Shown piece after piece: positions 36,587 through 63,380 of a stretch of DNA of 64,000 nucleotides; positions within the stretch are counted from its first letter, which is position 1, and each line of letters begins with the position of its first letter. The notes under the pieces are model-generated. The model did no database searches. It saw nothing but the letters and a program-made list of their open reading frames with translations, and had not been told where the DNA came from. Position numbers and translations under genes: made by a program. The stretch comes from Lophium mytilinum. Its lineage: Eukaryota. The stretch lies in assembly GCA_010093605.1 (NCBI GenBank), contig MU004196.1, positions 1,200,606 to 1,264,605 of the forward strand, read 5' to 3'.

Positions 36587-37520
36587 TTAGCGGGACGGTG
36601 GGAAATGCTTATTAGAGAATGAGTTGGAGGCTGTTGGTAGGTTGTTGTTCATGTTGTTGTTGTTGTGGGGATCGCCATAATTGGAGGTGGTTGGGGTGGC
36701 TGGGGGTGCGACCACCAGCGTGATATCTCACCACATCGCCCCCCAATTGAATTCCATGAGCTCTGGTTCGTGTGAAGTTGATGTACTCAAGAACCGGAAC
36801 CTTGGTATTAGAGCCCAGAACTAAGTGAGAGTTTGCACTGGCAAGATGTATAAGCGGGAGCCAGTCCGTGCGATTTGGAGTGGATCTGGGTTTACTATTG
36901 TTAAGACTTCTAAATCAGACCTCGGAGTTACGTTCCTTTTCCATCGTTGGGAAGCATCAATTGGAGCGGGTTCGTGCAATATGAATTGATTCGGGCTTGT
37001 CATTGGCACGACTTGTCGTTGAGGTTACGGAACGAGGTCTCATACTATCACAGGTTGGTCAAAAAGCACTGGTAGACCTGACAGAGTCATTACTAGGTCT
37101 GACTAAATTACTAGCTGAACAGTTGCTAGAGGACAGTACTAGGGCACAGGTTTGGCCAGCTATCTCTTTTATTTGATACTGATTCATGATAAGGTTTCAC
37201 AGAACCTCGAACAGGGCAAGCCCGCTAATGGCCAGCTTATGGAATTCCTCTAATTCAAGCTCTTAGGGAATGAAACAAATTAAGCGCGTCGAGGCACCCT
37301 CAACGGTGGTGAGTAAGGGTGTATTGGAATTTGTCAAGGTACTGTAAGTAGACCTGGCCACGTTATGTACCGATACTATTAGGTCTCCGTAACAAGGAGA
37401 GAAGAAAAACTCTAAACCTACCCTTCGACGTTGTATACTTCTTAGCTAGAAGCCTATTTAGCGAACCTCTATTTCGTATGCAGTTTTTGCTCGTTAGCAT
37501 CGTTATTTGAAAGATTTAAG

Positions 37521-37615
37521 GCCAATGTCTATTTTCAAGCAGTGTAGATTAGACTGCCTCTTGACTAAATAACAGCTTAGCAGCTAGGCTGCCCCCTGCA
37601 GTGGTATCGAGCGAA
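37521..37615 (+). repeat. Direct repeat, left copy (about 95 bp)
   Basis: Ungapped match to 38546-38640; 70 of 95 positions identical by hand count. Confidence 0.8.
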
Positions 37616-37617
37616 AG

Positions 37618-38458
37618 TTAGAACCAAGATGGCCTAATGAAACCGGGTAATATACTCTTAAACACCGTCACCAAATCCTCCACACTTTCGCCCGTTACGC
37701 GCCCTACTAGACTCGCCGTTGTCTTATAACCCGCTACAACGGGCCCTATTACGTGCACGACCGACGTCTCCCGCAGCTTAAACGCATGATCGCCCCGTAC
37801 TACTAGCGAATGATAGGGCGTTTCATTGACATAGCTCCTATCCCCCTCCGCCCTAATTCCCATATACTGCTCGCGTACCTCCCGTGATTTCATGCCGATG
37901 CCCCGCCCTGTGTGCGAAGTTAGCGGACACGCGATCATGTGCTGCGGAAAAACTGCCAGAACCACCATATAGCGCATTTTAGTGGAAATGGGGCCAATGG
38001 TGCTTTCAGTGCGTGCTTCGCTGGTGGTTGAGACGCTGTGGTCGCCGAGCGGCGCGAAGTGCGGCGTGCAGAATATCGAGCCGGGGGCTAGCTCTGCGAT
38101 CTCTTCGCGGGTCAGAGTCCTTGAGGGAGCTTTGGAGTTCGCGGTGGCGAGGGTGAGGCTGGATAGGCTAGGGGTGGAGCAGGCGGAAACAGAGGGACAT
38201 AGCGCCAGAGCTGGCGGTGCTGCTTTGGCCGCCCATGCGGAGATTCTTGATTCGGGGGTTGAGCGAGGGGGGAAGTGAGGCAGCATTGCTGGTTGGTCTT
38301 GGGGGAAGGGGGTAGGCTAATGTTTGGGAACCTCCCTGCTGAGGGAGAGATTGTGCACCATTTCCTGAGCCTGAGGTTACCAGCTTCGACTTCGGATAGG
38401 GTTGGTAACGAGAGCTAGAAGAGGCTCTACTTACTTGTGAGCCTGATTGTTCGACCAT
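37618..38458 (-). pseudogene. DUF6590-like / PemK-MazF-like protein, copy 1 (frameshift at C6 run near 38270)
   Basis: Core PHFAPLGD...RTESTIGPISTKMRYMVV...CPLTSHTGRGIG is shared with copies 2-4. The N-terminus MVEQSGSQVSRASS is in a different frame. Confidence 0.7.
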
Positions 38459-38545
38459 TTTATTGATCTGTACAGTGTCAGGTGACCCTGGGCACACTTC
38501 TTCGCCACTGCTTCCAGTACTCTCAACGAATTTCGAGAATCAACA

Positions 38546-38640
38546 GCCGATGTCTACTTACGAGCTGTGCAAATTAGACTGCCTCCCGACTGACTACCTA
38601 CTGAGTAGCTAGACTACCTCTTACCGTGGCACCGAGCGAG
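38546..38640 (+). repeat. Direct repeat, right copy (about 95 bp)
   Basis: Matches 37521-37615 (gcc.atgtcta...attagactgcctc...agctag...gtgg.a.cgagcga). Confidence 0.8.
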
Positions 38641-39161
38641 CAAGATTTGGGCCAGACGACGATAGATCCCTAGGCAGGCCTATAAAATAGTACTGTACTA
38701 GTGATCTGGTAAGGTAGGTTGTTTCTGTGATAGAGGTTAAATGTCAGAAGGAGTTTTGTTTACTGACTTCTGATACAGTAGGCTCGAGTTATATTTGAAT
38801 TTTACCGTCCTTAAACAGTTCCAGGAATAGCTTAGAGACCGAGGAGAATCGTAGAGAGGAGGTGTTTACGGATATTCGATAGATAACGAGCTGATAGATT
38901 TAAAGTATGCTGAGCGGTAACCGCAATATGAAGACAAAGCCATTGTCTCTTAACGGCCATAAAAACGTCGGTAAAACTTCAGCTATGGATGTAGAAAGCT
39001 TCACAAGGTCTTTTTCGACCAACGAAGTCCTTTGTTTATGCTGAGACACCCTTGAACAAAGAGATCTTCCTTATGCTTGATAAAGCTCCCCAACCTCATA
39101 TACTTAGTCTGCAGCATATTCTACACAGATTTGATTTGCTCAATTTGATACACTGAAAATC

Positions 39162-40301
39162 ATGTCGACTCTCGGTTCGAGATGCAGTGAAGTCGTCAAG
39201 CAAGGTCTCGAGTCACTTAGAAGCCTTTTTGCAGAAGAAGATGCTCTCCCCGTCGCGCAACACGACGCCCATCCGCGAAGTGAAACCTCTAGCCCGATAG
39301 AGACCATCTCTTCGCCACAAGCAGCGCAAGAGCAAGATACTCCGCAGTCAAGTCCAAAGCTTTCAGTACCTCACAACGGGAGATGGATCTTTGCTGTAGA
39401 AGAAGAAACCGATTACACATTCGGACCCGCGCGGATGATCGAGGCATTTGATCACGGCCACTCTTGCGCCGCCATGCTTCTATCATTCGGGCTCTCACAA
39501 AAAATAAAAGCGGCCCTGAATGATCGCCGATCATTGCAAGATTGGCATATCCAAGTCCAGCTACAACGAGAGCATATCGCGGCTCGCGATGGCGAACTGA
39601 ACGCGAGCTTCTTCCGACAAGACATTCAACTTGAAAAGCTGGAGATCGCGGCTCGGAAGATGGGCGACGACGTTTCAGCTGAACTCCAACAGAAGATGAA
39701 AGAGCTTCAGGCTTCAAGGAGAGATATTACAGTGCAGCGAGCTAAGCTGGAGGAGGAGGAGAAGCGAATAGACGACCGTTGGCAAATGGCCCTCTCTCAA
39801 CAACGAGTGCTTCGTGAAGAGGTAGACGTCATACTCGAAGACGTTTTCGTGAACTGTCAGCTACTGCAAGAGCCCCAGGATCCTTCATTTGGGCAGCACA
39901 ATGCATATCCGCCAGTTGCACGGCGATCATGCGTCCAAGGTGACGATGACAGTGATTACTTGGCTCCGGGGGACATCACCTATCCAGAAGATACCGGAAA
40001 AGCAGTTCTCTATCCAGAGAATACTAGAGAGGCAGCTCGCTATCCAGAGAATACTAGAGAGACCGAAGATAGTCCAACTGCACACCTGGAGCGCGACGGC
40101 GCTAACCCGTCTCGCAAGCGGATACACGATTGGCTGGATAACTCTGGTGGCGAAAGCATAAGTCCGCCTCCACCATCGGAGCCTGAGATGGATCATTGGT
40201 CGGTTGATTCAGACAAGCGGTTTGAAAGTGTAAGTGTGCTTGCTGAAGAGCCTCTTAGAAAGAAAATCGACTGGTGGAGACAGAAGACTCGTCAAGACTA
40301 G
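39162..40301 (+). CDS. Acidic coiled-coil protein, copy 1 (internally shortened)
   Basis: Intronless 379 aa; EETDYTFGPARM, SFGLSQKI, EVDVILEDVFVNCQLL, C-terminal WSVDSDKRFESVSVLAE..RKKIDWWR. Confidence 0.8.
   Translation: MSTLGSRCSEVVKQGLESLRSLFAEEDALPVAQHDAHPRSETSSPIETISSPQAAQEQDTPQSSPKLSVPHNGRWIFAVEEETDYTFGPARMIEAFDHGHSCAAMLLSFGLSQKIKAALNDRRSLQDWHIQVQLQREHIAARDGELNASFFRQDIQLEKLEIAARKMGDDVSAELQQKMKELQASRRDITVQRAKLEEEEKRIDDRWQMALSQQRVLREEVDVILEDVFVNCQLLQEPQDPSFGQHNAYPPVARRSCVQGDDDSDYLAPGDITYPEDTGKAVLYPENTREAARYPENTRETEDSPTAHLERDGANPSRKRIHDWLDNSGGESISPPPPSEPEMDHWSVDSDKRFESVSVLAEEPLRKKIDWWRQKTRQD
39981..40070 (+). repeat. 30-bp coding minisatellite, 3 units (YPE[DN]T)
   Basis: tatccagaagatacc at 39981; tatccagagaatactagaga at 40011 and 40041. 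Confidence 0.85.
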
Positions 40302-41042
40302 GTAATCGGAATTGACCAAAGTCGTTTCTCTCCTTTCTCTTGACGGTCTTTCTTCACATGTGTTCGACGTGATCTTTGCATTGAAGCGTACAAGTTAGTC
40401 CTGAATACAAAAGTTCACCAACCTTCTATTCTGACACATTACCAGTTCCAAATGCTCGTGATTTTGTCGTGACTTGCCAAATTGCCAGTGCTCTTTCGAT
40501 TCCGAACACAGAACTTGAGATGGATATCTCTCTGAAAAGGGAAGTCCATGGATATCAAGTCTAATCCAGACCCAATGTCCACCTCTGGATTCCGTCAATC
40601 CACTCTTTAGGCTCTTTGAATCTTTCCCTCGCTAGTCTGTGAAAGTATAGTCGGTTAGTAGTGAAGGGTGTACGTTAAAATTAGAGCCGCGTTCTTGGTT
40701 TACTGTCTTACTTTTCAAGATGAAGTGTTGTGCCTAGGACCAACAGCTTCGGTGGCAAATGCGCCGACCCCGCTCTACCCTAGGAACGACCTGACCTGAG
40801 CAGCTAGCTTCATAACCCTATGTACCACCACCTTTCGCAATTGACGTCAACACCCACGGCAAGATTGCTGTCGGCGTGGGATGATGCGCACTGCCCGCTT
40901 CCGGCCGCGGACCGCTTCATCTGACAACGCCCAGTAGTTGAACTATTTGAATCCCCGATTACATCTCGACGACACCAATCCAAACCCGCTTGAAATTCAA
41001 TAGCTGTGAAATCGATCTTCACAACTAAAAAAGGGTACCAAA

Positions 41043-41925
41043 ATGTCGCAGATCATTTTATTCGACCTACCCTCCAAAGATCGCTGTGCCTGCTGGTCTT
41101 ACAACCCTTGGAAAAGTATATCTCGTGATTTCCTTTCTCATACAAAGTATCAGACTAACACCAATTTCTAGCTCGACTCACTCTCAATTTCAAGGGTGTA
41201 GACTATACGACGGAATGGCTCGAGTATCCCGACATAGCAGCTAGGCTGAAGTCTTTGTCAGTGTACTATTTCTCTCATCAAAAGCTATTGCGTCTAACAC
41301 GTTATGTCCAGCGACATCCCTCCAAACAAGAAAGGAGCAGAGTACACTATCCCTGCAGTGCGTCTCGCAGATGGAACCTATCTGATGGACTCCTTCCCGA
41401 TCGCGGAAGCTCTCGAGAAGGCCTACCCAGCCCCGTCCCTACATCTTGACTGGGAGAAATTGCCAGAGGTGATCGAGAAAATAAACCAACTCTCGGAAGC
41501 CACCACGCCGTGGTGGAAGGCGAAGGTTCCACGCAATCTCCTCTTGCCACGGTCAGCAGAGTACTTTTCTCGGACGAGGGGGCAGAGGTACAATATGCCT
41601 CTGGAACAGCTCGAGAAGGAGCTTGCCACCGAGGAGAAGTGGGTGGAGGTGAAGCCGATTTCTGGAGATTTGTGTGCTCTTTTGAAGGCGAGTGGAGGCC
41701 CTTACTATAAAGGAACTACTCGTAAGTTTCAAACTTTATGATCCAAAGCGGCATGGAGGCTTATGTAGAGATTTAGCATCTTATGCGGATTTTGTGACGG
41801 TGGGATTTCTGCAGTGCGTGAAGAGAGCTGATGAGAGTGTTTTTGAGAAGCTTGTGGGTCTGGAACAAGAGCTGAAAAAGCTTTATGATGCGTGCGGAAA
41901 GTGGTTAGAGAGGGATGACCATTAA
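41043..41925 (+). CDS. Glutathione S-transferase family protein, 3 introns
   Basis: MSQIILFDLPSK..CWSYNPWK|.RLTLNFKG..Y.TEWLEYPDI, YTIPAV...MDSFPIA..LE..YP, SYADF. Confidence 0.88.
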
Positions 41926-42254
41926 GAACAACAGGAAACGGTAGGAAGACTAGATTCATCGAACTCTGAGGTCATGATGTTTGTGAGCCTTGCGTACTTT
42001 GCAAGGGAGATCATCGTTTATCTAGCATTCTGAACACGAAGTATCAGTTTCATTTTCAAACGCGCCTAGTCATAGCCCTTGGCTCCTTGTCACTTTCTGC
42101 CTCTAATGGTCTCGAAATTTTGCAACCGTGCTATCATTCTATGTTCTATCAGTATGGTAGTTCTGTGATATCATTCTTGAAATAGAAAGTCTACACAAAC
42201 GCACTCAACCTTACTTTTTCGTTACCTTCGTCCATTCATCGCTAATTATGTCAT

Positions 42255-43046
42255 CTAGTCAAGAGATTCTTCGATAGCCTTCTCCATAAGATTCTTGAAG
42301 GTCTCTGCCAACAGCTCACAGCTCTCCACAGTAAGCTGACCTGAGATATCATTGACCTTACTATAGCTTACCGCAACGAGCGCCATGAGATGGACATTGC
42401 TCGTACTTTTTAGCGTAAAATTGTTCCACGCGTAACGCACTTCCAGCGGCTCATACGGCGTTTGATTATCGCCGCCGCCCGATGCGTCGTTCTGCATCTT
42501 CATCGCCATGTAGTTAGCGCGTACGTCAGCAGGCTTGTGCCCAATTCCACGGCCAGAGTGGCTGTAAAGAGGTAAGGCCAGCAAATGGTCCGGAAATTTC
42601 GCGATTACAATCATGTATCGATTCTTCGTAGATGCAGGACCTATGGTGGACTCTGTACGAGCTGAGTGGCCGACAGGAATGGTTGGGTCACCGAGAGGCT
42701 CGAAATGTGGTGCGTTTATGATATCCCCAGTCGTGCTTTTGGCATAGCTCACGATGACAGGGCCGGTGGAGCGCCCAAATCCTGTGTTGCGTGATGTGGT
42801 AGAAGCGTTAGAGCCTAATGTCATCCTCTGCATTCCGGTGCTGATGTTCGAAGGGTTGGCGGTGGTCCTCCATTGTCCGCCCATTGGATTATTGCTGACA
42901 TGTGATGCGTTAGAAGCAGCGTAGGGAGCGCGTCTAGCATTGCTTGCAGCACTTACTTGGGATGTATTCCAGTTTGAACGAGCAGCCCCTGCTTGACTTG
43001 ATCGCCAGACGCCGCCATTGGCAGTGGGAGCATTTTTTAAAACCAT
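42255..43046 (-). CDS. DUF6590-like / PemK-MazF-like protein, copy 2
   Basis: Intronless 263 aa; N/S/G-rich N-terminus, then GDIINAPH.EPLGD...ESTIGPASTKNRYMIV...LPLYSHSGRGIG. Confidence 0.8.
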   Translation of the reverse strand: MVLKNAPTANGGVWRSSQAGAARSNWNTSQVSAASNARRAPYAASNASHVSNNPMGGQWRTTANPSNISTGMQRMTLGSNASTTSRNTGFGRSTGPVIVSYAKSTTGDIINAPHFEPLGDPTIPVGHSARTESTIGPASTKNRYMIVIAKFPDHLLALPLYSHSGRGIGHKPADVRANYMAMKMQNDASGGGDNQTPYEPLEVRYAWNNFTLKSTSNVHLMALVAVSYSKVNDISGQLTVESCELLAETFKNLMEKAIEESLD

Positions 43047-43535
43047 TCTGAGTTTGATCGCGCGGATGGTGTGACTGACGGTAGGAATTTGGTGTATCTT
43101 GACTGTAGCCAGATCGCGAGGCTACCTTGTAACTCGAGATTTGATGATGTTAACCTTTTGAGTGATTTGAAGAAATACCTGCAAAGGTGATGACGAAATA
43201 CCAAAAGGCGAGTAAGAATGGTTGGTAGATCGAAAGGACCTTGATGAGAGTGAGCATATCAATCATCTTTAAGGTCGAACGGGACCGGAACAATAACATT
43301 GTATTATTTCCTGCGAGGGTTAAAGTGGGAAGGATGAACAAGACTTTGTATAGGTGATGTCGAATTTTCTGATCATTCTTTGTTCGATTACGCATCGTTG
43401 ACAAACAAAGCTACGTTGCTGAAGCCGAGAAAAGAGAATAAAGACTCGCAGGCCCTCATCGACCACAAAATAAAATTGCTGTCCCTCAGAGAACCTACTT
43501 ACTTGAAACCACAGAATTAGGTTGAAAATTGCGCC

Positions 43536-44897
43536 ATGGCTGTCACCGACTTCGTTAAGCAAACATTGCAATTTGTTGCGGGCAGATATCATGCCCTCAC
43601 GCGCATGGCAGACGAGTCGACCACATCGCTGGCAATAAGAGCGGAAGAAGACGCGATTCCTGAGGAGACTGCTCCACTGACGGTAGAAGAGGCCATGTTT
43701 CCACCAGCTGTTGGTTGCTTTTTTGGGGAAGAGGAGGAGAACGACTACACTTCTGGCCCTGCAAAGATGGTAGTAGTGAACGATGGGGCTAACGCGTCTG
43801 CTGCTCTCCTTCTTTCATACGATCTTTCAAAGAAGATCCAAGACGCTGTAATGGGCGATCGCGTACTCCAAGAGCTAGGGCTTCAAATCGATCAACAACG
43901 CAGCAATATCAATGCTCGCGAACAGGATCTACGCTACACTATTCTACGAATTGATCGTAAAATCGAGAGGCTCGAACTCAAGTTCAAGAAAGCTAGTAAG
44001 CTCACAGATGAACAGGTTCGCGAAACGGAGGAGCATAGAGCGGCCATCAGCGACCTAGAAAAGCAACGGGCAGACCTCGAGCTAGAAGATCATGATCTTC
44101 GGGAACGTTGGGAAGCAGCTCAGCAACGACAGCAGATGCTTCAAAGAGAAGTGAACGTCATCATGGAAGACGTCTTTGTCAAATGCCAACTTTTGCCACC
44201 ACAAGAGTCATTCGATGGCTCTCAGATGGAGCCATTCGATGGCGAGGGTTCAGATCAGTTTCCTGATGCCCCGGAAGGACTCGAATTCGAGAACCACCTT
44301 GGCGAAATTCCTCAGGCCCAGAATGTGACGGATGACTATCAAGATGTCGCTATGCAGGCGAGCACAAATCTGGAGCACCGCAAAGGTGATTTGATCCGGG
44401 CCCAGCGGAGTTTCGACACTTACCAAACCGGGTATGATGCTTCCCTTCAACAATATCTCTCCACTCAAATTAACCGCCCAATCATTGACTCACAAACAGA
44501 ACATGATCTACTCCATCTACAACGTGGGCGCACCCTTACGCGGCGCCTAATTGATGCCGAAGAGGCTCTCGAGGCCGCGGAGATAGCTGCCAAAGCCGCG
44601 AGATGCCCTACCAATTACTTCCAAGAGTCTCATTTCGGGGACGGCACTGATGATGGGTATCGCGAGAGTCAAGAGGCCGCAATAGCTGCCCAGGTTGACC
44701 GTAAGAAAATCGAGGCGTGGCTGGCGAAGGAACCCGCAAACGGAGATATGAGGAGGCCGAGTGAGGCTAAAACGGAGCCGGAGGTTGATGAGTGGAGCGT
44801 GGATGAGGAGAAGCCGTTTGATAGTGTAAGTGTCCTGGCGGAGGGGTCGCGGAGGAAGAAGATTGATAAGTGGCGGCGCCGGACCGGTGCATATTGA
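43536..44897 (+). CDS. Acidic coiled-coil protein, copy 2
   Basis: Intronless 453 aa, clearly paralogous to 39162 and 47384 (ENDYTSGPAKM, EVNVIMEDVFVKC, WSVDEEKPFDSVSVLAE). Confidence 0.85.
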   Translation: MAVTDFVKQTLQFVAGRYHALTRMADESTTSLAIRAEEDAIPEETAPLTVEEAMFPPAVGCFFGEEEENDYTSGPAKMVVVNDGANASAALLLSYDLSKKIQDAVMGDRVLQELGLQIDQQRSNINAREQDLRYTILRIDRKIERLELKFKKASKLTDEQVRETEEHRAAISDLEKQRADLELEDHDLRERWEAAQQRQQMLQREVNVIMEDVFVKCQLLPPQESFDGSQMEPFDGEGSDQFPDAPEGLEFENHLGEIPQAQNVTDDYQDVAMQASTNLEHRKGDLIRAQRSFDTYQTGYDASLQQYLSTQINRPIIDSQTEHDLLHLQRGRTLTRRLIDAEEALEAAEIAAKAARCPTNYFQESHFGDGTDDGYRESQEAAIAAQVDRKKIEAWLAKEPANGDMRRPSEAKTEPEVDEWSVDEEKPFDSVSVLAEGSRRKKIDKWRRRTGAY

Positions 44898-45644
44898 CTT
44901 TTTTCTTCTAGCTCTTCTTTGCTTTGCAATCAAGCGAGCATTCTCGCCACTTTATAGAGAGCCTGTTTTCATAGCTTGACAGAATTTCATTACCGCAGTA
45001 CCATTATCAGACTTTTCCTGCCTGTTGAGCTTAAAGAAGAAGGTTTAAATCTAAACCTAAGACCCCCTTGAGTATTCGTTGAAGAAGTAGTCAGCAATTC
45101 TTACATATTAAACAAAACTTCTCCCCGAGTCCTAGTGCGAATTCAGATCCGCCCTCAAACGCTTATTATTCTTTGTGAAATGACTGATCCGTTAGTGACA
45201 CCTTGAAAGCCCTTTACTCAAGAAAATATCGTATCTATGAAGAAGCAACCTATTACGTTAATGCTGGACAGGGAATTTACTAGGTACGGCTTCAAGTGAT
45301 GGCGCAATCTGCCCTTCATAATGCAATTCTAGGCGCTCTTCCGATGAGGGATGCTAAACTGTGTGTTACCGAACTTCTAGACCATTGGCTGAGCTTCGTA
45401 GCAGAATTTATCGTCACGTATCAAGTTCATTTGGAGCGAGAGAGTATGGGGGAGGGATTGCATTGTACTTACTAACATTGTGTCATTGGGGTTTGTCACC
45501 TTGTCAAGTCTTCAATAGAGTTGCTGGATAGATGACCACGTTGGCGGCCATCCGAGAAAACCATCGGGAAAGCGCATGCACTGCGATCTCGATCATTCTT
45601 TAGTCTTTCTAGTTGCTGGCTCGATATCATCCCGGCTAGAAGAC

Positions 45645-46136
45645 TTATTTAGCAGATTTCGCAATGAGATCCTGAAGGGTCTTTAGCATAGCTTTACGAC
45701 TCTGGACAGTGAGCTTACCAGCCACACAATTCGCCTTCCCGTAGCTGATCACACACGGCGCCATCAGGTGCACATTATATGTGCTCCTGAACGGTCCATA
45801 TCTGATGTCTAGCGGTGGGTATGGAGTGTGATTATCACACTCCTCTATTGGGGCTGTGTCGAGCTTCAGTGACATGAGCTCTGAATGCACCTCTTCAGGC
45901 TTATGCCCGATACCGCGACCGCTGTGAGTGTAGAGAGGGATAACGATCATGTGTTGCAGTAGCTTGATAAGCACAATCAGATACCGCATTTTCGTTGATA
46001 CTGCTCCGACGGTGCTCTCAGAACGGGCGGCACTGCCGAGGGGAACGCTCATATCGGCGAGGGGCGCGACGTGAGGTACGTTGATGATTGTTAGTAGCTG
46101 TACAGGGCATACGTAACCAGACCTACCCTTGCTCAT
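45645..46136 (-). CDS. DUF6590-like / PemK-MazF-like domain, copy 4 (in frame behind the stop of copy 3)
   Basis: IINVPHVAPLAD...SESTVGAVSTKMRYLIV...IPLYTHSGRGIGHKP; lacks the low-complexity N-terminus. Confidence 0.6.
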   Translation of the reverse strand: MSKGRSGYVCPVQLLTIINVPHVAPLADMSVPLGSAARSESTVGAVSTKMRYLIVLIKLLQHMIVIPLYTHSGRGIGHKPEEVHSELMSLKLDTAPIEECDNHTPYPPLDIRYGPFRSTYNVHLMAPCVISYGKANCVAGKLTVQSRKAMLKTLQDLIAKSAK

Positions 46137-46139
46137 GCT

Positions 46140-46991
46140 TCAAGCATCCTCAAGCCCCCTTGTCATAAGCTGCTTGAACGTCTGAGTAATCCCGACAATG
46201 CTCCGCGCCCCAATCTGTCCAACCACTGCTTTCACACTCTTGTAGTTGATGACCACCGGCGCTATCACGTGGGCGTTAGTTGAATCCTTCAGTCTAAACT
46301 TGGAGGAGTCCGCGTATCTCACCTCCAGCGCTGGATGTGGCGTCTCGTTAGTATGATCCTCTTCTTTGACGTCATGTGCCCTCAATGCCATATACTCTGC
46401 CCTAATATGTGCTGGCTTGAACCCGATACCGCGTCCAGTGTGTGAGAAGAGCGGACATGCGATCATGTGTTGAGGAAATTTAGCTAGCACAATCATGTAG
46501 CGGTACTTTGTGGAGAGAGGACCAATCGTACTTTCAGTTCGACTTGGATCGCCAACGGGCACGTTAGGGTCGGCTAAGGATGCGGCGTGTGGTGCGCAGA
46601 CGATGTCTCCGCGTTCGACGTCGTTGTATGTGAGAGGGACAAGAGCGCCGGGCAGGCTAATGTTGCCGGAGGTTGAGAAAGCTGAGGCGCGGGAATTAGT
46701 GCTCAGTTGTGACTGGCCAGTGCCAGAGGCATTGGCCCTCCATTGAGGGGTGCTTTGGCCAGGAGCATTAGAAGGTATGTTTTGGGGACCGGCAGTTGTC
46801 CGCCATGCTCCGTTCGGCCTCGATGCGTTTGTGCTCGCAGCAGTAGTGCCTGCGCGAGGCATTTGGTTGCCGTATATCGATTGTCGCGAGCTGGAGGCTG
46901 CGCTTACCTGGGAATTGGCGTAGAGATTTGAACCGGCTCTCGAGGCTGGTCCTAGAGCGTGACCGGCTGGCAAGTTGGCTCCCCTCGGCAT
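46140..46991 (-). CDS. DUF6590-like / PemK-MazF-like protein, copy 3
   Basis: Intronless 283 aa; RGDIVCAPH...RTESTIGPLSTKYRYMIV...CPLFSHTGRGIG. Confidence 0.8.
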   Translation of the reverse strand: MPRGANLPAGHALGPASRAGSNLYANSQVSAASSSRQSIYGNQMPRAGTTAASTNASRPNGAWRTTAGPQNIPSNAPGQSTPQWRANASGTGQSQLSTNSRASAFSTSGNISLPGALVPLTYNDVERGDIVCAPHAASLADPNVPVGDPSRTESTIGPLSTKYRYMIVLAKFPQHMIACPLFSHTGRGIGFKPAHIRAEYMALRAHDVKEEDHTNETPHPALEVRYADSSKFRLKDSTNAHVIAPVVINYKSVKAVVGQIGARSIVGITQTFKQLMTRGLEDA

Positions 46992-47383
46992 CGTGCTTGA
47001 TCAGAAATTTGATTGAATATCTTTGGTGGAAGGATATGCTGAATGGTATGGTCCGATACAAGTTTGGATGAAGCAATTGCAGCGATATTCTGATATCTGG
47101 GGGCAGTGTTTCTGAGGGTAACATGAAAAGCTCGTCTGTAATAAGAAGAACGGAAACAAGCATTGTAAGGCCTACCAAGAAAGAAGAGAAAACAATGTTG
47201 CAACACGTCAGAGATCAAATTAATCAATGTTCTTTCAAAAAGGGTATTAACTTCTTTGTTGATGCTGACACTTCCTCCATAAAGAACGTTGTGTAGAACA
47301 CATCAATGATGATAAGCCCGCGATTCTTCAATAAATGTCCGAACTAACAGTCCTCTCTCTGCAAACTCCACTTACACACGAAC

Positions 47384-48799
47384 ATGAATCTGACAAAGAA
47401 GCCAAATCTTGGTATGTTGGATTTTAGTTACCTCTGGCAAAATAGCGTCGATGGTCTTAAGACCCTCTGGACCCGCAAGCCTACGTTTGAGGTCGAAGAC
47501 AGATCCTCGCAAACGACAAGTGCAACGACAAGCTCGGCGGATGAACCGATGCAGGATGTAAGCATTGCTGGGAATGATATTGAAGAAGGACCGAGCACAC
47601 CGCCCGATGTCGACTGGGTCTTCGCCGGAGAAACGGAAGACGATTACACTGCCGGACCAGCAAAAATGGTTGAAGCCAGTGATGGAACCAAGGCCTGTGC
47701 TGCAGTCGCGCTCTCTTTCGACCTGTCAAAGAAGATCCAGGATTCTCTGATGGGTAGGCGTATGCTCCAACAGCTGAGTTTCGAGATCGAGCAACAGCGC
47801 GATGAAATAGCGGCCGAAGAGCAGAAGCTGACGATTTTCATCCTGAGACAAGATCGCAAGGTTGAGACAATCGAGATCGAGGTGGAAGAAGCCGGCGGCG
47901 AGCCTACAGCTCAGCAACAGGACAAGATGCAAGAGCACCGGGCCGCTATTAGAGAGACCGAGAAGCAACGTGCGATGCTGAAGGAGAACGACGAGTTACT
48001 CGTGCAGCGATGGGAAGGCGCTAGGCAACAGCAAGAGATGCTGCAGAATGAGGTCAACGTCATTCTTGAAGATGTCTTCGTGACGTGCAATCTTTTGCCG
48101 CCAGTGATGTACAATGAGCCTTCCTTGGAGCAGCATGAAGGATTCTACGATGAGGAAGAACAACCCTCCTTCGATGATGCGAACGTGTTCGAGGCTCCTA
48201 CGCTTGGTAATACGACGGTCGCTGGTCAGAACGTTCTTCGAGTAGGCGATAATGCCCAGAACGCTGCCATTCAAGCAGGCACAAACCTCGAACATAGCCG
48301 TGGCGACCTGCTTCGGGCCCAGCGCAACTTCGATGCCTATCAATGCGGGTACAACCAAGACCTCCAAGCCTACCTCTCCTCACAAGTCAACCGTCCTTAC
48401 GATGATGTAAAGCTAGAGCATGATCTGCTACATCTCCAAAAAGGCCGACGTCTCACGGGAGAGCTCATACAAGCCGAGAAGCGATTTGAAGACGCCGAGA
48501 TCGAAGCCAAAGCAGCCGGCGTCTTTCCAGGCTATTACCAGGAGTCCAACTTCGCCGATTGCCCAGATGACGGATATCGCGAGGGCCAAGAACTCGAGAT
48601 CGCAGCGCGTGTAGACCGCAAGCGGATCGAGGAATGGTTAGAGAATGCTGAAGGCGATGGCATGAGTCCGCCGCCGGAGCCGGAGATGGATCAGTGGTCC
48701 GTTGACTCGGATAAGCCGTTTGATAGCATCAGCGTGCTTGCGGAAGGCCCTAACCGAAAGCAGATCGATCGGTGGCGGCAGGAGACTGGCCATTGTTGA
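47384..48799 (+). CDS. Acidic coiled-coil protein, copy 3
   Basis: Intronless 471 aa; EDDYTAGPAKM, EHDLLHLQKGR.LT, YYQESNFAD..DDGYRE, WSVDSDKPFDSISVLAE..RKQIDRWR. Confidence 0.85.
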   Translation: MNLTKKPNLGMLDFSYLWQNSVDGLKTLWTRKPTFEVEDRSSQTTSATTSSADEPMQDVSIAGNDIEEGPSTPPDVDWVFAGETEDDYTAGPAKMVEASDGTKACAAVALSFDLSKKIQDSLMGRRMLQQLSFEIEQQRDEIAAEEQKLTIFILRQDRKVETIEIEVEEAGGEPTAQQQDKMQEHRAAIRETEKQRAMLKENDELLVQRWEGARQQQEMLQNEVNVILEDVFVTCNLLPPVMYNEPSLEQHEGFYDEEEQPSFDDANVFEAPTLGNTTVAGQNVLRVGDNAQNAAIQAGTNLEHSRGDLLRAQRNFDAYQCGYNQDLQAYLSSQVNRPYDDVKLEHDLLHLQKGRRLTGELIQAEKRFEDAEIEAKAAGVFPGYYQESNFADCPDDGYREGQELEIAARVDRKRIEEWLENAEGDGMSPPPEPEMDQWSVDSDKPFDSISVLAEGPNRKQIDRWRQETGHC

Positions 48800-49129
48800 T
48801 TGACTTCCGCTTTCGAGCGAGGCTCCCAGCTTCTTATTGATGTCGTAGCGTTTTAGCGTCTTTGCGTTTGGGTTGAAAGCAAAAGCGCATTTATATTACC
48901 AGTTCAATCTGATCAACACTGATATCCCAATACTGAAACCCCGAAATGCGTCGCTTAGTGATCGAATGGATATCGACATGTGAATTCGTGGTAAAGCAGA
49001 GTGCTTAGTGTCGCCGTGATAGCCGCGCAAGTACTTTTCGGGGGTGTAGTTCTGGAGCGAGAGGCTCATTGGAATTGAGAAAATAGGCCATAAAGCGAAA
49101 AGTGATAGCGAAAAGGGTGAGACTACCTT

Positions 49130-51175
49130 TCAAACAAGAACAATATCCTCTGACACTAGCTGGCCGGATTTCCAGACCTCAATGATCTCGCCGCTCATCA
49201 TATCACGGACATAGCACTCGCCCACCAGTTGGTATTGGCTACTAGCTCCGTGGTATTCATAGTCCTGAAAAGCCGTGCGCAGGACAAATGGAGTTTCACC
49301 ACCTAGCAATATGGCGACACGATCGCCAACTTCCAGCGCTTCTGGTCCTAATCCCATGTATCCTTCTTCTGTAATGAACAAGCGACGGCGGTGGCAGAAC
49401 GCCAGTACGGTATTGAACATTCTAATGAATGAATCCGTAGAGAATTTCGCAGTATGAATCTCTCTCCAAATTTCATCAAACGAGAGAGCGGGATCGTGTT
49501 GTCGAGTCAGACTACAGAAGAAGTTGCACTTCGTTTCAAATTCCGTATCCATAACCGGTAAGTGCCTCGTAGTAGAAACGTTTGCCGTCATCACTCGAAC
49601 GATTACGTTTTCTAGAGATTCATGGTCGTCATGAGTTTAGACGCTACGTATGGACGATAGGAAGTCTCGGATTGCTGCGAACAACTGAACCACACCAGAA
49701 TCGTGTTCGACGTCTCTGTCCATGAACTGACTGCGCATCAATACTTGCGATACTATAACTCCATGCAGCCTGAGACTCGTATTATCAGGGCCGGGAAGCA
49801 ATCTGAATGCTTCATCGCCAGAAGCACCATAGAATTTTCTCTGTTTTTCGGATGACGAATTTATCGGTTCGAAATAAGGATCTCCAGGCCATGAACGAAC
49901 CCAAGTAGATACACTCCTCCGAGAGAGCGCTAATCCATGATTGACGAGTCCTAAAAATACTAAATCTCGCTTGATCTCTATGAATTGCTGAATTGTAGCT
50001 CGGAAAGCGTGTAGTGGATCAATCGAGTAGTCTGGCTCAATGTTTAGCTCTGGAAACAAGTCTAATATGCTGTATACCCGGTCGATGGGAAGTGCGCATT
50101 TGAACACGAAGTCTGAGGTGAAATAGTTCCAGATGTCTCTGTGGCTCTTGGTTGTATGGATCACATAGGCGGCATGCAGGCGTTGCATAGTCCTCGATCT
50201 ATTTCCAAGATGCAACATACCGTATTTCAAGGCTGCAGTGACAAGTTCCCGACGGCAGAGCCATGACGCAGCTGCCCCCACTATATCCCAAGGAATCTCC
50301 AGTTCACCGAGCAATACAAGTGCTTTAGTAGCCAAGACTACCTCTTGAATCACCCAGATTCTCTCGAACCACACTTTATCAAAGAAGTTCAGAAGGGCGA
50401 CCCACCGCCTATCGATGTAAGGGGGGTATCCCCATGGCGCTTCACTTGGATCATCCAACCTCGGATATGGATTATCGCTGAAATTAGGGTCCGCTTGTTC
50501 CTCTAAAGCTGCTGAAAGAATTGGCAACGCTTGCAACTCATTGCTAACGATCTCGCCGAGCCAAATGAGTACCGTCTGCGCCCTTTTGTAAATTGAACCC
50601 ATCATCTTTACTTGGTGCGACTTTTCCTCGTTGTTTTTCTGATCGATACACACAGCGTCGATCCAAAATATGCGCTCGGTGTTGATCCTGCCGTGGGTCC
50701 ACCGGTCTCTTTTCTGGCATATTGGATAGCGAGTAATCATTTCATCTATCTCGTGGGATGTTTCTTGCTCGGCTTGGGGTGTCTCTTCCTCGGCCTCTCG
50801 CGAGGACATTTCCCCTCGCGATCGATATCGCCGCCACATCTTTGCAATGGGACGTGAGCCTTTCGCAAGACTTCTTCGTAGAATGGAGCGTTCTTTGATA
50901 GGAGCATCGGGTAGTTGGGGTGACGGATTCAAAAAACGAAGACCTCGGAGTGCATCGAAGAGGTTGACACCAACGAAGACCTCGTGCCCGTTCAAGTTGA
51001 TTGATTTTTTAGGTTCTGGGGCACCCCAAACGTAGGATAGAGCCTCGTACTCTGGCGCTGAATCGAAAGGAAAGACTTTGAGCTCGCCGACAATGTCGTC
51101 CTGGTCAGCTCCGGCATAAAGATAAAGCAATCGAAACGAGCCCTTCGGCAAGGGGGTTTGGTAGAACCCGGCCAT
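49130..51175 (-). pseudogene. HET-domain (HET-6-like heterokaryon incompatibility) protein with an internal stop
   Basis: YEALSYVWG, FWIDAVCIDQ, QVKMMGSIY, WFERIWVIQE; C-terminal GYMGLGP...PFVLR...LVGECYV. The two ORFs share a frame and are separated by TAA at 49637-49639. Confidence 0.8.
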
Positions 51176-53569: not shown

Positions 53570-55477
53570 TCAAACTTTGTTCTCACCGTCCTCGAATTGT
53601 TCAACACCTTCGCCATTAGTGGCGGCTTCCGGTGCAATTGGTGCTTTCACGCGCGTATCGACCCATTGGAGACCGAAACAAATCACGAAAGCTCCAATCC
53701 CTCCCGCCAGTTCAAGCCACTGTAACAACCGCTGTTAGTCCTCAAAAGGCCTACAAAGGGTCAGAACAGCTTACGAAAGTCTCCGTAATGGCCCCACTAT
53801 AGGCCCTCAGAACCGCCCTCAGCTTGTCCGGGAAATACTGTCCCACCACGCTGCGTATCTCCACATTGCCCGCCGTCAGTAGTTGACTAATTTGCACCGC
53901 GTCTAGACTCGCCCCTATCCGCAGGTTCTTGACCACCCCATTGTGGTAAAGTGCTGCGGCGATGGCCTGGAAGATCGCGTTCCCGAAGAACTGCCCAAAC
54001 ATGATCAATGAGATGGCGAGCGGGATGTCGGCTGGCTTGTCTTTGAGGATAGACGGGATCAAGAGCATGGGCATCTGCAGCGCGGAGCCCATGCCGAGGC
54101 CTTGGAGGACCTGGAAGGTGGCCCAGCGGTTGGCGTTGGTCCCGAAAGCGGTGAGGAGGGTGAAGAGACCGCTGGCGAGGCAGACGACGGCGGTGCCGAA
54201 GATCATGATGGGGTTTAGGTACTTTAGAAATCGGGCTGGGTGGGTTAGCGTTCGACAGTGTCTACAAGCGGTTGGGGGGACTACGAACCTAGGATCCCGG
54301 TGGTTATCATGGCGATTGTTTGCATGCCGACGGTAGGGAGCATCCGAATGCCGCTGGCGGTGGGACCGACTCCTTTGACGACTTGAAACCATTCGGGGAG
54401 ATAGTAGGTAGGTACGACGTTTGTGCCGCCAAGGAAGACGATGTAGAAGAAGCAGACGTAGATGGAGCGCCGCTTCATCAGCGAGAAGGGGATCATAGCC
54501 GTGTCCCCCCGATACTTCTCCCAGGCGAAGAACAGCACCGCAACGACCGCAAACCCAACGAACAGCCCAATGATCGTCGCAGAACCCCAGGCATACTCAT
54601 TCCCACCCCACTGCAACGCCAGAAACAGCATAACCATCGACCCAGCGAAGAGCACGCACCCGCCCAAATCCAGCAACTGAATCTTCTGCACCACCGACCG
54701 CCCCTGCGGCAGCTCTTCCCTCGGCGGATGCAGAAACACAAGGAGCACCGCAATCGTGACCGCCCCCGTCGGCAGATTGATATAAAAACACCACCGCCAG
54801 CTCACGTGCTCCGTCAACGCGCCCCCGATAATCGGCGACACGACCAGCCCAATCGACATCACGCTCATCACCATGCCCATGAAGAGCGCGCGCAGCGCCG
54901 GCGGCGACACGATGGTCACGATGGACATGCCACCGGACGCGATGCCCGCGGAGCCGATGCCCGCGATGGCGCGCCCGACGATGAACATGCTGGAGCTGGT
55001 CGCGGCGCCGCAGATCAGCGAGCCGAGGAGGAAGGTGGTGAAGAAGGCTTGGAAGACCCAGCGCAGGGGGAAGATGGTGGCGAGTTTGCCGGTAAGGGGT
55101 TGCAGTGCGCAGGTGCTGAGGGGGTAGGCGGCGCCGTACCAGCCGATGTCGGCGGTGGTGTGGAAGTGGGAGGTTATGGAGGGGATGGCCTGGGGGTGGG
55201 AGGTTAGCGACGGGATTAGGAGGGTTTGTTTTGCTGTCTTTTGGGTATGGCTGGGCGATGTTGGATGGGTTTGAATGCGAGGTTTGGAGGGGAGAGGGCT
55301 TACTGTTGCGATGACGGCGATGTCGAGGCAGGAAAGGAAGCCCGCGAGGCAGACTGCGGCTACGACGCTGTAGAGCTTGACGCTTGTCAGGTATTGGGGC
55401 TCGCCTTTCATCTTGACTTCGATAGCAGTTGCCGTTGCAGTGCCATCTGACGCCGTGCTTTCTTTGGAGTCGTCCAT
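53570..55477 (-). CDS. MFS efflux transporter (DHA2 / 14-TMS type), multi-exon
   Basis: LDIAVIAT|AIPSIT..F....DIGWYG, LQPLTGKL, GRAIAGIG, WRWCFYINLP, LALQWGG; last exon ends ENKV* at 53570. Confidence 0.9.
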
Positions 55478-62008: not shown

Positions 62009-63380
62009 ATGGCCGACCAGGGCTTTGGAAATCGGATGCGACAACTCGTCGGGTTAGGCGGTAACAAGAAGGGCAGGGTAAGGCATTTCAACCCCATACT
62101 TCCTTCGACCGTTACCTAACATATGCTCACAGCCCTCAAAGATTCCCACCACCGTCGGACCGGCCTCTAACTTACGACAGCGCGTTACCAAACCCAACGT
62201 CCGAGCTCAGGGTCCGTCCAAGGATCTGCTCAAGCAAGCACTCCTTAACCATACCCAGAACGGAACAATCGCCGCCCTCGCAATTCTGAACAAGCCGGCC
62301 ATGCGTCCGCAGGGTAACGCATCTACCTCGAAAGGCGTCGATGATGCCGATTCTTCCGACGACGAAGATGTCGAGGAAATGGAGCTTGTACAGCATACCG
62401 CCAACCGAACCGCCGCCCGAGTTTCCACCCCTGGGACCTTCACCCGAACGTCCCTCGACTACCACCCGCACCTCCACCTCGGTAGCTTCGAGATCGGCAG
62501 GGCCCTCGGCCGCGGCAAATTCGGTCGCGTCTATCTCGCGCGGCACCGCGACTCTTCCTTCATCTGCGCCCTGAAAGTCCTCACAAAGGCCCAGATCGCC
62601 AGCGAAGGAGACGAGAATCTCGTCCGCCGCGAAATCGAGATTCACTCAAAACTCTCCCATCCGGGTATATTGAAGTTCTACACCTGGTTCTACGACGCCA
62701 CTCGCGTGTTCCTAGTCCTTGAATATGCGCCGGGTGGGGAGCTATTTCGGAAGCTGCAGAAAAAGGGGAAGTTCGGCGAGCACGAGGCTGCGGTGTATGT
62801 GGCACAGGTTGCGGATGCGTTGGCGTATATGCACAAGAAAAACATTATGCATCGCGATATCAAGCCTGAGAATATCCTACTAGGATTTCATGGGGAGATC
62901 AAGCTTGCGGATTTTGGGTATAGCGTCCATTCGGCTTCGAATCTGAGGAGCTCGCTTTGTGGGACTATCGACTACATCCCACCGGAGATCGCGAGGCAGT
63001 TGCGGAAAGTTAGGCCGGGGAAAGAGGAGTTTTACAATCGGAATGTGGATCTCTGGTCGCTGGGTGTATTGGCGTATGAGTTGATGACGGGGAAGCCGCC
63101 GTTTGAGATGCCGACGAGGGAGCAGACGGAGAAAAAGATCCTGACGGGCAAGGTGCAGAGGACTGGTGTTGAGATGTCGAAGGAGGCGAAGTCTTTTATT
63201 CGAGCAGTAAGTTTCTTCTAATCTACGCACATTCGTCTTTGTCAATATATGCTAACGTTCTCCTAGCTTCTAGTCTTGAATCCAGATGAACGGTTGCCGC
63301 TAGATCAAGTCCTCGAGCATCCTTGGATCGTGATGCACTGCGGTCGGATTAGGAGCTCTAGAGGCATTTTCGGGTATTGA
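62009..63380 (+). CDS. Aurora-family Ser/Thr kinase, 2 introns
   Basis: FEIGRALGRGKFGRVYLAR, RREIEIH, HRDIKPEN, DFGYSVH...LCGTIDYIPPE; last exon LLVLNPDERLPL..VLEHPWI. Confidence 0.88.

Follow-up and report, generated by a model that had tools for sequence, protein, structure and literature searches.

A MazF/PemK-like fold predicted for the fungal DUF6590 family and a candidate partner gene

The four family A proteins encoded in a 64,000-nucleotide stretch of the Lophium mytilinum genome (hereafter the window, within which all coordinates are given; GenBank contig MU004196.1, positions 1,200,606 to 1,264,605) are, on balance, probably diverged eukaryotic homologues of the bacterial MazF/PemK/Kid toxins that are likely to cut RNA, and the product of the accompanying family B gene is their likely physical partner. 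The C-terminal domain of family A, about 150 residues long, would be the homologue of the toxin domain, and appears to keep the arginine at the start of strand 2 that serves MazF chemistry, the fold-shaping Gly, Pro and Gly, and a near-invariant Ser/Thr after the position of MazF Thr52. Given these retained residues, the most likely activity is RNA binding combined with metal-independent cutting, so that family A would bind single-stranded RNA at the site used by MazF and cleave it without a metal. MazF-type toxins are regarded as a prokaryotic invention, and a fungal family with the MazF fold and the catalytic arginine would add a eukaryotic branch to this superfamily.

All four family A paralogues in the window are encoded on the minus strand. 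A1 (37618..38286; 222 aa), delineated by ORF translation, Pfam search and paralogue alignment, consists of a disordered N-terminal tail followed by the MazF-fold domain; A2 (42255..43046) is a 263-aa ORF, compared with 238 aa and a different N-terminus in the annotated Lophium protein P0002; A4 (46140..46991; 283 aa) has the same length as protein P0005; and A3 (45645..46136) is a truncated copy with a 163-aa ORF. Comparison of each copy with the entire window using tblastn recovered exactly these four genes and none further, with pairwise identities of 38-48% and E-values between 1e-27 and 1e-58, so that the similarity among the paralogues is far above the chance level. Of the four copies, A2, A3 and A4 lie inside the interval given in the sequence-only reading (42255 to 46991), and A1 is located about 4 kb upstream. 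The motif that this reading described as shared by the four copies is borne out by 38 invariant columns in their alignment, which include I..., PH, L.D, R.EST.G..STK.RY and H....PL.[ST]H[ST]GRGIG.K, followed by C-terminal H, Y, G and S, but some of the proposed spacers were off by one to three residues: the spacing is I-xxx-PH rather than I..PH, with six residues instead of five from V to H, eight instead of six from H to Y, and seven instead of five from Y to G.

By Pfam profile match, family A is DUF6590 (PF20233), a fungal family with no assigned function, as had been suggested when the motif was first noticed. A1 (32.6 bits) and A2 (30.0 bits) pass the gathering cut-off of 27 bits; A3 (16.7 bits) and A4 (19.9 bits) fall below it and are clear paralogues of the former two, and the DUF6590 model matches 96 of the 97 relatives in the alignment used here. 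The family is found in Ascomycota, and a protein-language-model search additionally detects a look-alike cluster in Basidiomycota. No paper mentioning DUF6590 or PF20233 was found in the literature searched, and queries combining MazF or PemK with fungal terms or with heterokaryon incompatibility returned nothing relevant, the one candidate passage being an entry on phage T4 in a reference list. Beyond the literature searched, DUF6590 gains a predicted fold like that of MazF, residues that may form its active site, and a partner gene that is conserved with it; the likeness to MazF would provide the family with a testable function.

The resemblance to the MazF/PemK fold that had been suspected from the motif is upheld by both structure and profile comparisons. 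The AlphaFold2 (AF2) model of the A2 domain (42258..42749, minus strand; 164 aa), built from the 97-sequence alignment, has a pLDDT of 94.7 and a pTM of 0.88, and contains an SH3-like barrel and a C-terminal helix, as in the solved structures of MazF and Kid. When this model was compared with the PDB using Foldseek, all of the matches listed, 27 rows down to rank 48, were MazF-family toxins, with 5hkc_A as the best match listed (E-value 8e-4) and target-normalised TM scores of 0.58-0.71; the E-values are modest, and the sequence identity to these matches is 9-14%. VIA-align and Foldseek together match the A2 domain with MazF, Kid and CcdB. Convergence, with the domain being some other small barrel of the SH3 type that ends in a helix and only looks like MazF, is a most improbable explanation: the best MazF match has a Z score of 11.8 compared with 5.7 for the best unrelated barrel, a gap of about 6, and the profile comparison and the positions of the conserved residues described next speak against convergence as well.

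In the comparison of alignment profiles with hhalign, family A matched a MazF alignment (67 sequences, from 80 bacterial loci) with a probability of 81.6% and an E-value of 1.1e-5 over 94 columns that span the whole MazF domain, whereas the controls did not exceed 0.2% (0.2% for the reversed MazF alignment and 0.0% for the family B alignment). Against the sequence of E. coli MazF alone, the hhalign probability was 3.9%. The Pfam PemK_toxin model (PF02452) matches none of A1-A4 and 1 of the 97 relatives (E-value 0.0044), and HMM-to-sequence searches in both directions, run with small sets, gave a best E-value of 0.003. With these weak results for PemK_toxin, HMM and single-sequence searches, the sequence case for homology rests on one profile-profile comparison. 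A sequence search of the PDB returned nothing meaningful for the A2 domain and nothing for the family profile; in the protein-language-model search, a PemK/MazF cluster ranked 11th (score 0.89), which is to be taken as a lead only. Under the hhalign alignment, G8-D9 of the A domain pair with G10-D11 of MazF, G37 with G22, R44 with R29, P60 with P50, G68 with G57, and G137 with G92, and, with the exception of G57, E. coli MazF and ChpB share all of these residues. Seven conserved positions of family A, including the catalytic arginine, fall on conserved MazF positions, which further counts against convergence.

The candidate active site is conserved in one part and altered in another. As had been proposed, the K-x-R motif (K-N-R in A2, codons at 42618..42626 on the minus strand, K42 and R44 in domain numbering) maps onto the catalytic arginine, with R44 aligned to R29 of E. 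coli MazF and present in 97 of 97 relatives, and K42 in 96 of 97. Conservation in the same alignment is also high at S/T63 (96/97), G8 (91/93), G37 (93/97), P60 (92/97), G68 (94/97) and G137 (93/96). According to PMC10893535, the R29A substitution abolishes cleavage by MazF and T52A strongly lowers it, so that both the Arg and the Thr are needed; R29 and T52 of E. coli MazF correspond to R25 and T48 of the B. subtilis enzyme, the role of the arginine being taken from the same paper. The segment P-L-Y-S-H of A2 (42558..42572, minus strand) places P60 on P50 of MazF, Y62 on T52 and S63 on T53. The variability noted earlier at the Thr52 column, followed by [ST]-H, is seen among the relatives as well: 87 of 97 sequences have Tyr or Phe in this column and 4 of 97 have Thr, the next position is Ser or Thr in nearly all, and His64 is found in 47 of 97. 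The conserved Ser/Thr, being one position past the Thr52 column, may point away from the active site, and the caution about activity in the sequence-only reading was justified, catalysis being here a prediction from these residues.

These observations lend some weight to a less favored explanation, namely that family A, though truly related to the MazF fold, has no catalytic activity left and instead acts as a module for binding RNA or protein within an ordinary cellular complex that includes B (in RNA granules, for instance), without behaving like a toxin. Such a loss would be compatible with the replacement of Thr52 by Tyr or Phe and the irregular His64, with the long, disordered, low-complexity N-terminal tail of family A, which is rich in Ser, Thr, Asn and Ala, and with the nature of B, a long coiled-coil protein of a type common in scaffolds. 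It seems rather unlikely all the same, because an active site accounts more readily than a scaffold does for the strict retention of Arg44, Lys42 and Ser/Thr63 at the site of MazF chemistry, and because repeated tandem duplication of the A/B pair in several lineages would be unusual for a housekeeping complex. Far less probable, and the least probable of the alternatives, is a CcdB-like mode of action in which a topoisomerase is poisoned instead of RNA being cut. CcdB is among the folds matched by the A2 domain and, like the type III toxins CptN, ToxN and AbiQ, represents another branch of the fold that scores below MazF and Kid.

Compared with the known MazF/PemK/Kid type II toxins (PF02452; 8zws, 4mzm, 1m1f and 5cr2), which are bacterial, the fungal family A domain is about 45 residues longer, has two inserts that are not present in MazF (residues 12-36 and 69-99 of the A2 domain), ends in a longer helix, and carries the disordered N-terminal tail as a fusion. 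Owing to the inserts and the extended helix, the domain may differ from MazF in how it dimerizes and in the shape of its RNA groove. At the sequence level, family A also departs from MazF in carrying the Ser/Thr one residue later than Thr52 and in eluding the Pfam PemK model. Longer fused forms of A, in the range of 462-2000 aa, were not found in the search, which is weak evidence.

Within the window, the family A genes form three head-to-head pairs with family B genes, each full-length A being divergent from a B gene on the plus strand. B1 (39162..40301; 379 aa) lacks the middle helical hairpin that is present in B2 (43536..44897; 453 aa) and B3 (47384..48799; 471 aa). The divergent starts are separated by 875 bp in A1/B1 (38287..39161), 489 bp in A2/B2 (43047..43535) and 392 bp in A4/B3 (46992..47383). 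The first of these unstranded intergenic regions is presumed to be a bidirectional promoter, and full-length A and the divergent coiled-coil B gene (380-470 aa) would in general share a short promoter region. The three intergenic regions have no common motif longer than 8 nt, and the single shared 8-mer is uninformative. The AF2 model of B2 (pLDDT 70.9) contains two long helical hairpins besides a beta hairpin; its C-terminal motif region is disordered in the model and yet is the most conserved part of B. No Pfam family matches B above the cut-off, with sub-threshold coiled-coil noise as the sole signal; Foldseek finds no PDB fold for the B2 model at E <= 1e-3, returning generic helical hairpins only; and the language-model atlas contains only nameless Ascomycota clusters. 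By Pfam and Foldseek, B resembles no known antitoxin.

The pairing extends well beyond the window. On 20 metagenome contigs with 34 B genes, retrieved using the B alignment, an opposite-strand DUF6590 gene is located upstream of 31 of the 34, the remaining 3 being at contig ends, and 14 of the 20 contigs carry A-B-A-B arrays. Homologues of A and B are found on contigs of equal size (50,264) in Glonium stellatum, and both are on a contig of 6,401 in another assembly. The trees of A and B (13 pairs) agree in the supported clades, with SH-aLRT values of 93/87, 97/100, 99/99 and 95/95. The two genes thus appear to be passed on and duplicated together in several lineages of ascomycetes, and such joint inheritance and duplication makes a physical partnership with A the most likely role of B, which would act as an inhibitor or regulator, in the manner of an antitoxin, or as a targeting part. 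A conserved, co-duplicating B would thus be a concrete second component. The relationship is apparently asymmetric, in that A comprises 189 clusters at 50% identity, compared with 23 hits for B, so most DUF6590 proteins probably lack a B partner.

A stronger version of the MazF-homologue explanation would cast the A/B pair as the eukaryotic counterpart of a toxin-antitoxin module, with a MazF-derived RNase, a coiled-coil antidote that binds it via the disordered but conserved C-terminal motif, one bidirectional promoter, and tandem amplification driven by a part in some genetic conflict, for which recognition of non-self between fungal strains, the killing of spores and an abortive defence directed at mycoviruses are candidates. 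This must be considered speculative. Fungal and other eukaryotic two-gene toxin-antidote and allorecognition loci are tightly linked pairs that duplicate and diverge together, like A and B; in contrast to these loci, the A/B pair is known here from sequence, apart from any genetics of killing, drive or incompatibility. We know of no toxin-antidote or allorecognition system that employs a MazF-fold protein. The organization also differs from that of mazEF and pemIK, where the antitoxin is a small DNA-binding protein, MazE or PemI (AbrB/RHH fold), encoded upstream in the operon, as opposed to a divergent coiled-coil gene of 379-471 aa. In the type III modules (ToxIN, CptIN and AbiQ), a repeat RNA antitoxin lies beside the toxin gene, whereas in the region 37000-49500 there is no Rfam match and no RNA-antitoxin-like repeat near the A genes, the only tandem repeat, a 30-bp unit in 2.7 copies, being within the B1 coding region. 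If A is toxic and B protective, the pair would be a fungal two-gene toxin-antidote system built on a bacterial toxin fold, with implications for the way in which eukaryotes take up and domesticate such enzymes; should A prove harmless, A and B would nonetheless make a new RNA-directed protein pair that deserves to be defined.

The metagenomic A/B pairs sit among housekeeping genes, namely those for Rad10, SelR and a SLAC1-like channel, and the same Rad10 neighbor is kept in two distant lineages, which agrees better with vertical inheritance of a cellular function than with mobile elements of the addiction type and is also among the observations compatible with a non-catalytic role of A. In the window, a HET-domain gene adjoins B3. 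When considered as a clue to incompatibility, this gene was set aside: in five related metagenome loci, 23 ORFs with a length of 130 aa or more were scanned and no HET domain was matched, and the adjacency is treated as incidental.

Part of the locus appears to be transcribed. Contigs from one sequencing run contain four GT..AG splice joints, which indicates that they derive from RNA, the RNA label of the run itself being only a guess. These contigs cover the A2 domain, A3 with the end of A4, and B3; the one across A2 (41777-42876) is unspliced. A3 is a truncated extra copy that has no partner and is probably co-transcribed with A4: it lacks the N-terminal tail, the GD start and a partner gene of its own, and follows directly after the A4 stop codon, in frame with A4. 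A splice joint in a transcript contig delimits a 47-nt intron in the A3 coding region (45671..45717, minus strand), the removal of which yields a translation identical to the annotated 146-aa protein P0007, with the C-terminal helix lost from the spliced form. A second joint, in a transcript contig extending into A3, marks a 61-nt intron in the A4 coding region (46262..46322, minus strand), and translation after its removal shifts the A4 reading frame.

Family A is represented in the window by exactly four copies, 38–48% identical to each other, as found by tblastn with each copy. ORF listing and translation place all four on the minus strand: A1 (37618–38286), A2 (42255–43046), the short copy A3 (45645–46136), which starts one codon past the A4 stop in the same frame, and A4 (46140–46991). 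Their alignment contains 38 invariant columns, the main elements being PH, L.D, R.EST.G..STK.RY, H....PL.[ST]H[ST]GRGIG.K and the C-terminal H, Y, G and S, which reproduces the motif described in the sequence-only reading, except that A1 lies outside the interval assigned there to the four copies and a few spacer counts were off. The N-terminal tails of A2 (42747–43046, minus strand) and A4 (46620–46991, minus strand) have in common the short stretches SQVSAAS and WRTTA.P.NI and are otherwise disordered, of low complexity and rich in Ser, Thr, Asn and Ala; the A1 tail differs from these, and A3 has no tail.

Over the part searched, A2 matches a hypothetical Lophium mytilinum protein at 100% identity, followed by relatives from Mytilinidion resinicola (86%) and from Glonium stellatum (49%). 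Pfam PF20233 is present in all three; judged by sequence, the source of the window is fungal. The suspected resemblance to fungal DUF6590 is borne out, with A1 (32.6 bits) and A2 (30.0 bits) scoring above the Pfam cut-off of 27, A3 (16.7 bits) and A4 (19.9 bits) scoring below it, and 96 of 97 aligned sequences matching the family. This alignment combines the four window copies with 93 relatives covering most of the domain; searched exhaustively, a set of 1.84 billion representative proteins yielded 189 relatives at E ≤ 1e-3, and in relatives of 113–540 amino acids the domain is mostly C-terminal. In an atlas search, the relatives belong to Ascomycota, with an additional look-alike cluster in Basidiomycota that lacks the Pfam family.

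The AlphaFold2 model of the 164-residue A2 domain, built from the 97-sequence alignment (pLDDT 94.7, pTM 0.88), contains eight strands and, at its C-terminus, a helix of 23 residues. Among the Foldseek matches listed from the PDB (27 rows to rank 48), all are MazF-family toxins, including MazF-mt3, -mt1 and -mt9, YdcE, MoxT and the MazF proteins of S. aureus, B. subtilis and E. coli, with a best E-value of 8e-4 and a target-normalised TM-score of 0.58–0.71. The proposed MazF-like fold thus holds for the predicted monomer, since MazF-family toxins are the only matches listed; the domain may also form dimers, and a role like that of CcdB, one of the suggested structural comparisons, is unlikely. 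Compared with MazF, the A2 domain carries two inserts (residues 12–36 and 69–99) and its last helix is longer.

Plain sequence methods are blind to this link. PDB sequence searches give no matches for family A, the Pfam PemK model matches one of the 97 relatives (E 0.0044), HMM-to-sequence searches between family A and MazF reach a best E-value of just 0.003, and hhalign of the family profile against the single E. coli MazF gives 3.9%. Against a MazF profile, made from 67 ORFs of 90–150 amino acids from 80 bacterial MazF-family loci, hhalign gives a probability of 81.6% and an E-value of 1.1e-5 over 94 columns that span the whole MazF domain; with the same query, a reversed MazF alignment gives 0.2% and family B 0.0%. 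Mere convergence on the MazF fold is therefore an unlikely reading of a similarity that is seen in both the model and the profiles.

It is at the aligned positions that the fungal family is most conserved. In A2 domain numbering, hhalign pairs G8-D9 with MazF G10-D11, G37 with G22, R44 with R29, P60 with P50, G68 with G57 and G137 with G92; conservation among the relatives is 97/97 for R44, 96/97 for K42, 91/93 for G8, 93/97 for G37, 92/97 for P60, 94/97 for G68 and 93/96 for G137. In the E. coli MazF and ChpB sequences, retrieved for comparison, all of the aligned MazF positions except G57 are invariant. The mapping of the K-x-R motif onto the catalytic arginine is upheld because the profile alignment sets R44 on R29. 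MazF cleavage requires both this arginine and a threonine, R29A abolishing and T52A strongly reducing it, according to PMC10893535. The Thr52 column is indeed variable among the 97 relatives (Tyr 58, Phe 29, Thr 4) and is followed by Ser or Thr in 96, but the histidine that comes next in the motif is found in just 47. From the limits of the model strands (39–51 and 55–62), R44 should sit opposite residue 62 across the hairpin. A MazF-like active site is plausible. On the favoured account, family A would be a fungal, MazF-derived, RNA-directed enzyme that may cleave RNA; the main rival account makes it a non-catalytic RNA-binding or scaffold protein.

Every full-length A gene in the window faces a plus-strand gene of family B: B1 (39162–40301) faces A1, B2 (43536–44897) faces A2 and B3 (47384–48799) faces A4, with 875, 489 and 392 bp, respectively, between the start codons. 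No Pfam family scores above cut-off for family B, whose 23 sequence relatives include those from Glonium and the lichen-forming Xylographa and whose atlas look-alikes are unnamed Ascomycota clusters only. The AlphaFold2 model (pLDDT 70.9) comprises a short beta hairpin, two long helical hairpins and an unstructured C-terminal part, which holds the most conserved columns, with the motifs QES.F...DDGYRES.E and D.W...S...S.S....R..IDRWR; a Foldseek search with the model gives no matching fold at E ≤ 1e-3. Within B1, 2.7 copies of a 30-bp unit (39980–40061), encoding the repeated peptide YPENTREAA, stand in place of the middle helical hairpin present in B2 and B3.

The pairing extends beyond the window. 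When the B alignment was used to scan metagenome contigs, 20 loci were obtained, on which mapping of all A- and B-family proteins shows 34 B genes; the loci are redundant and fall into about five sequence groups. A DUF6590 gene lies 0.5–1.2 kb upstream on the opposite strand for 31 of these B genes, the other three being cut off from their upstream DNA by the end of the contig, and 14 loci have window-like A-B-A-B arrays. In Glonium, the homologues of A and B are each on a contig of length 50,264, presumably the same one, and a further pair is likewise assigned to one contig of length 6,401. Trees of A and B for 13 pairs (three from the window, those from Glonium and the contig of 6,401, and eight from six loci, the 14 other loci being excluded as near-duplicates) share supported clades (SH-aLRT 93/87, 97/100, 99/99 and 95/95), so that A and B have been inherited and duplicated together. 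Nothing else speaks as strongly for a joint function of the two. The A enzyme would act with its B partner, probably under the control of B; the two may bind each other and may behave as toxin and antidote. The kind of protein that family A represents is known; its setting is new and differs from that of the bacterial MazF modules in the eukaryotic host, the enlarged domain, the disordered tail, and an unrelated partner and gene layout. In the literature searched, no paper mentions DUF6590 or PF20233 and nothing is found on a fungal MazF-like/B pair.

In one public run, 62% of the sampled words of 42000–49000 are present, and its contigs contain four GT..AG joints and therefore derive from RNA. 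They cover B3, the A2 domain (unspliced) and a transcript on the minus strand that starts within A4 and continues through A3 (45369–46369), from which two short introns within conserved coding sequence are removed: one of 61 nt in A4 (46262–46322), which shifts the reading frame, and one of 47 nt in A3 (45671–45717), the removal of which gives exactly the annotated protein P0007 (146 amino acids), which lacks the C-terminal helix. Given these two introns and the missing helix, A3 has the look of an extra copy that is either decaying or regulatory, and retention or removal of the introns could serve as an on/off switch for A3 and A4. A glutathione S-transferase-like gene (41256–41925, plus strand) has two GT..AG introns of 55 nt each, as a transcript contig confirms. 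This contig also extends across two-thirds of A2 (the 3' part) on the opposite strand, so that the genes are convergent and may have overlapping transcripts.

Directly downstream of B3 lies a 512-amino-acid ORF with a HET (heterokaryon incompatibility) domain (49637–51175, minus strand, E 2.9e-29); among the ORFs scanned from related loci, no HET domain match is found. The neighbours there are Rad10, SelR and a SLAC1-like channel, with Rad10 common to two distant lineages, and accordingly the HET adjacency is probably incidental, and the pair seems to have been passed on vertically. No sign of transposons is seen among the window ORFs scanned. The cluster is flanked by ordinary fungal genes, namely two protein kinases, Utp25 and an MFS transporter (16985–19192, 22569–24455, 54281–55477 and 62301–63221), together with a P450/flavodoxin reductase, an aldo-keto reductase and others. 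The Rad10/ERCC1 gene is Pfam-confirmed in the metagenome loci L085 (3650–4882) and L088 (7185–8357), and its counterpart in L086 (7765–8997) is assigned by position; it lies 2–3 kb downstream of B where the B proteins are just ∼40% identical between lineages, so that the pair has kept its chromosomal neighbourhood.
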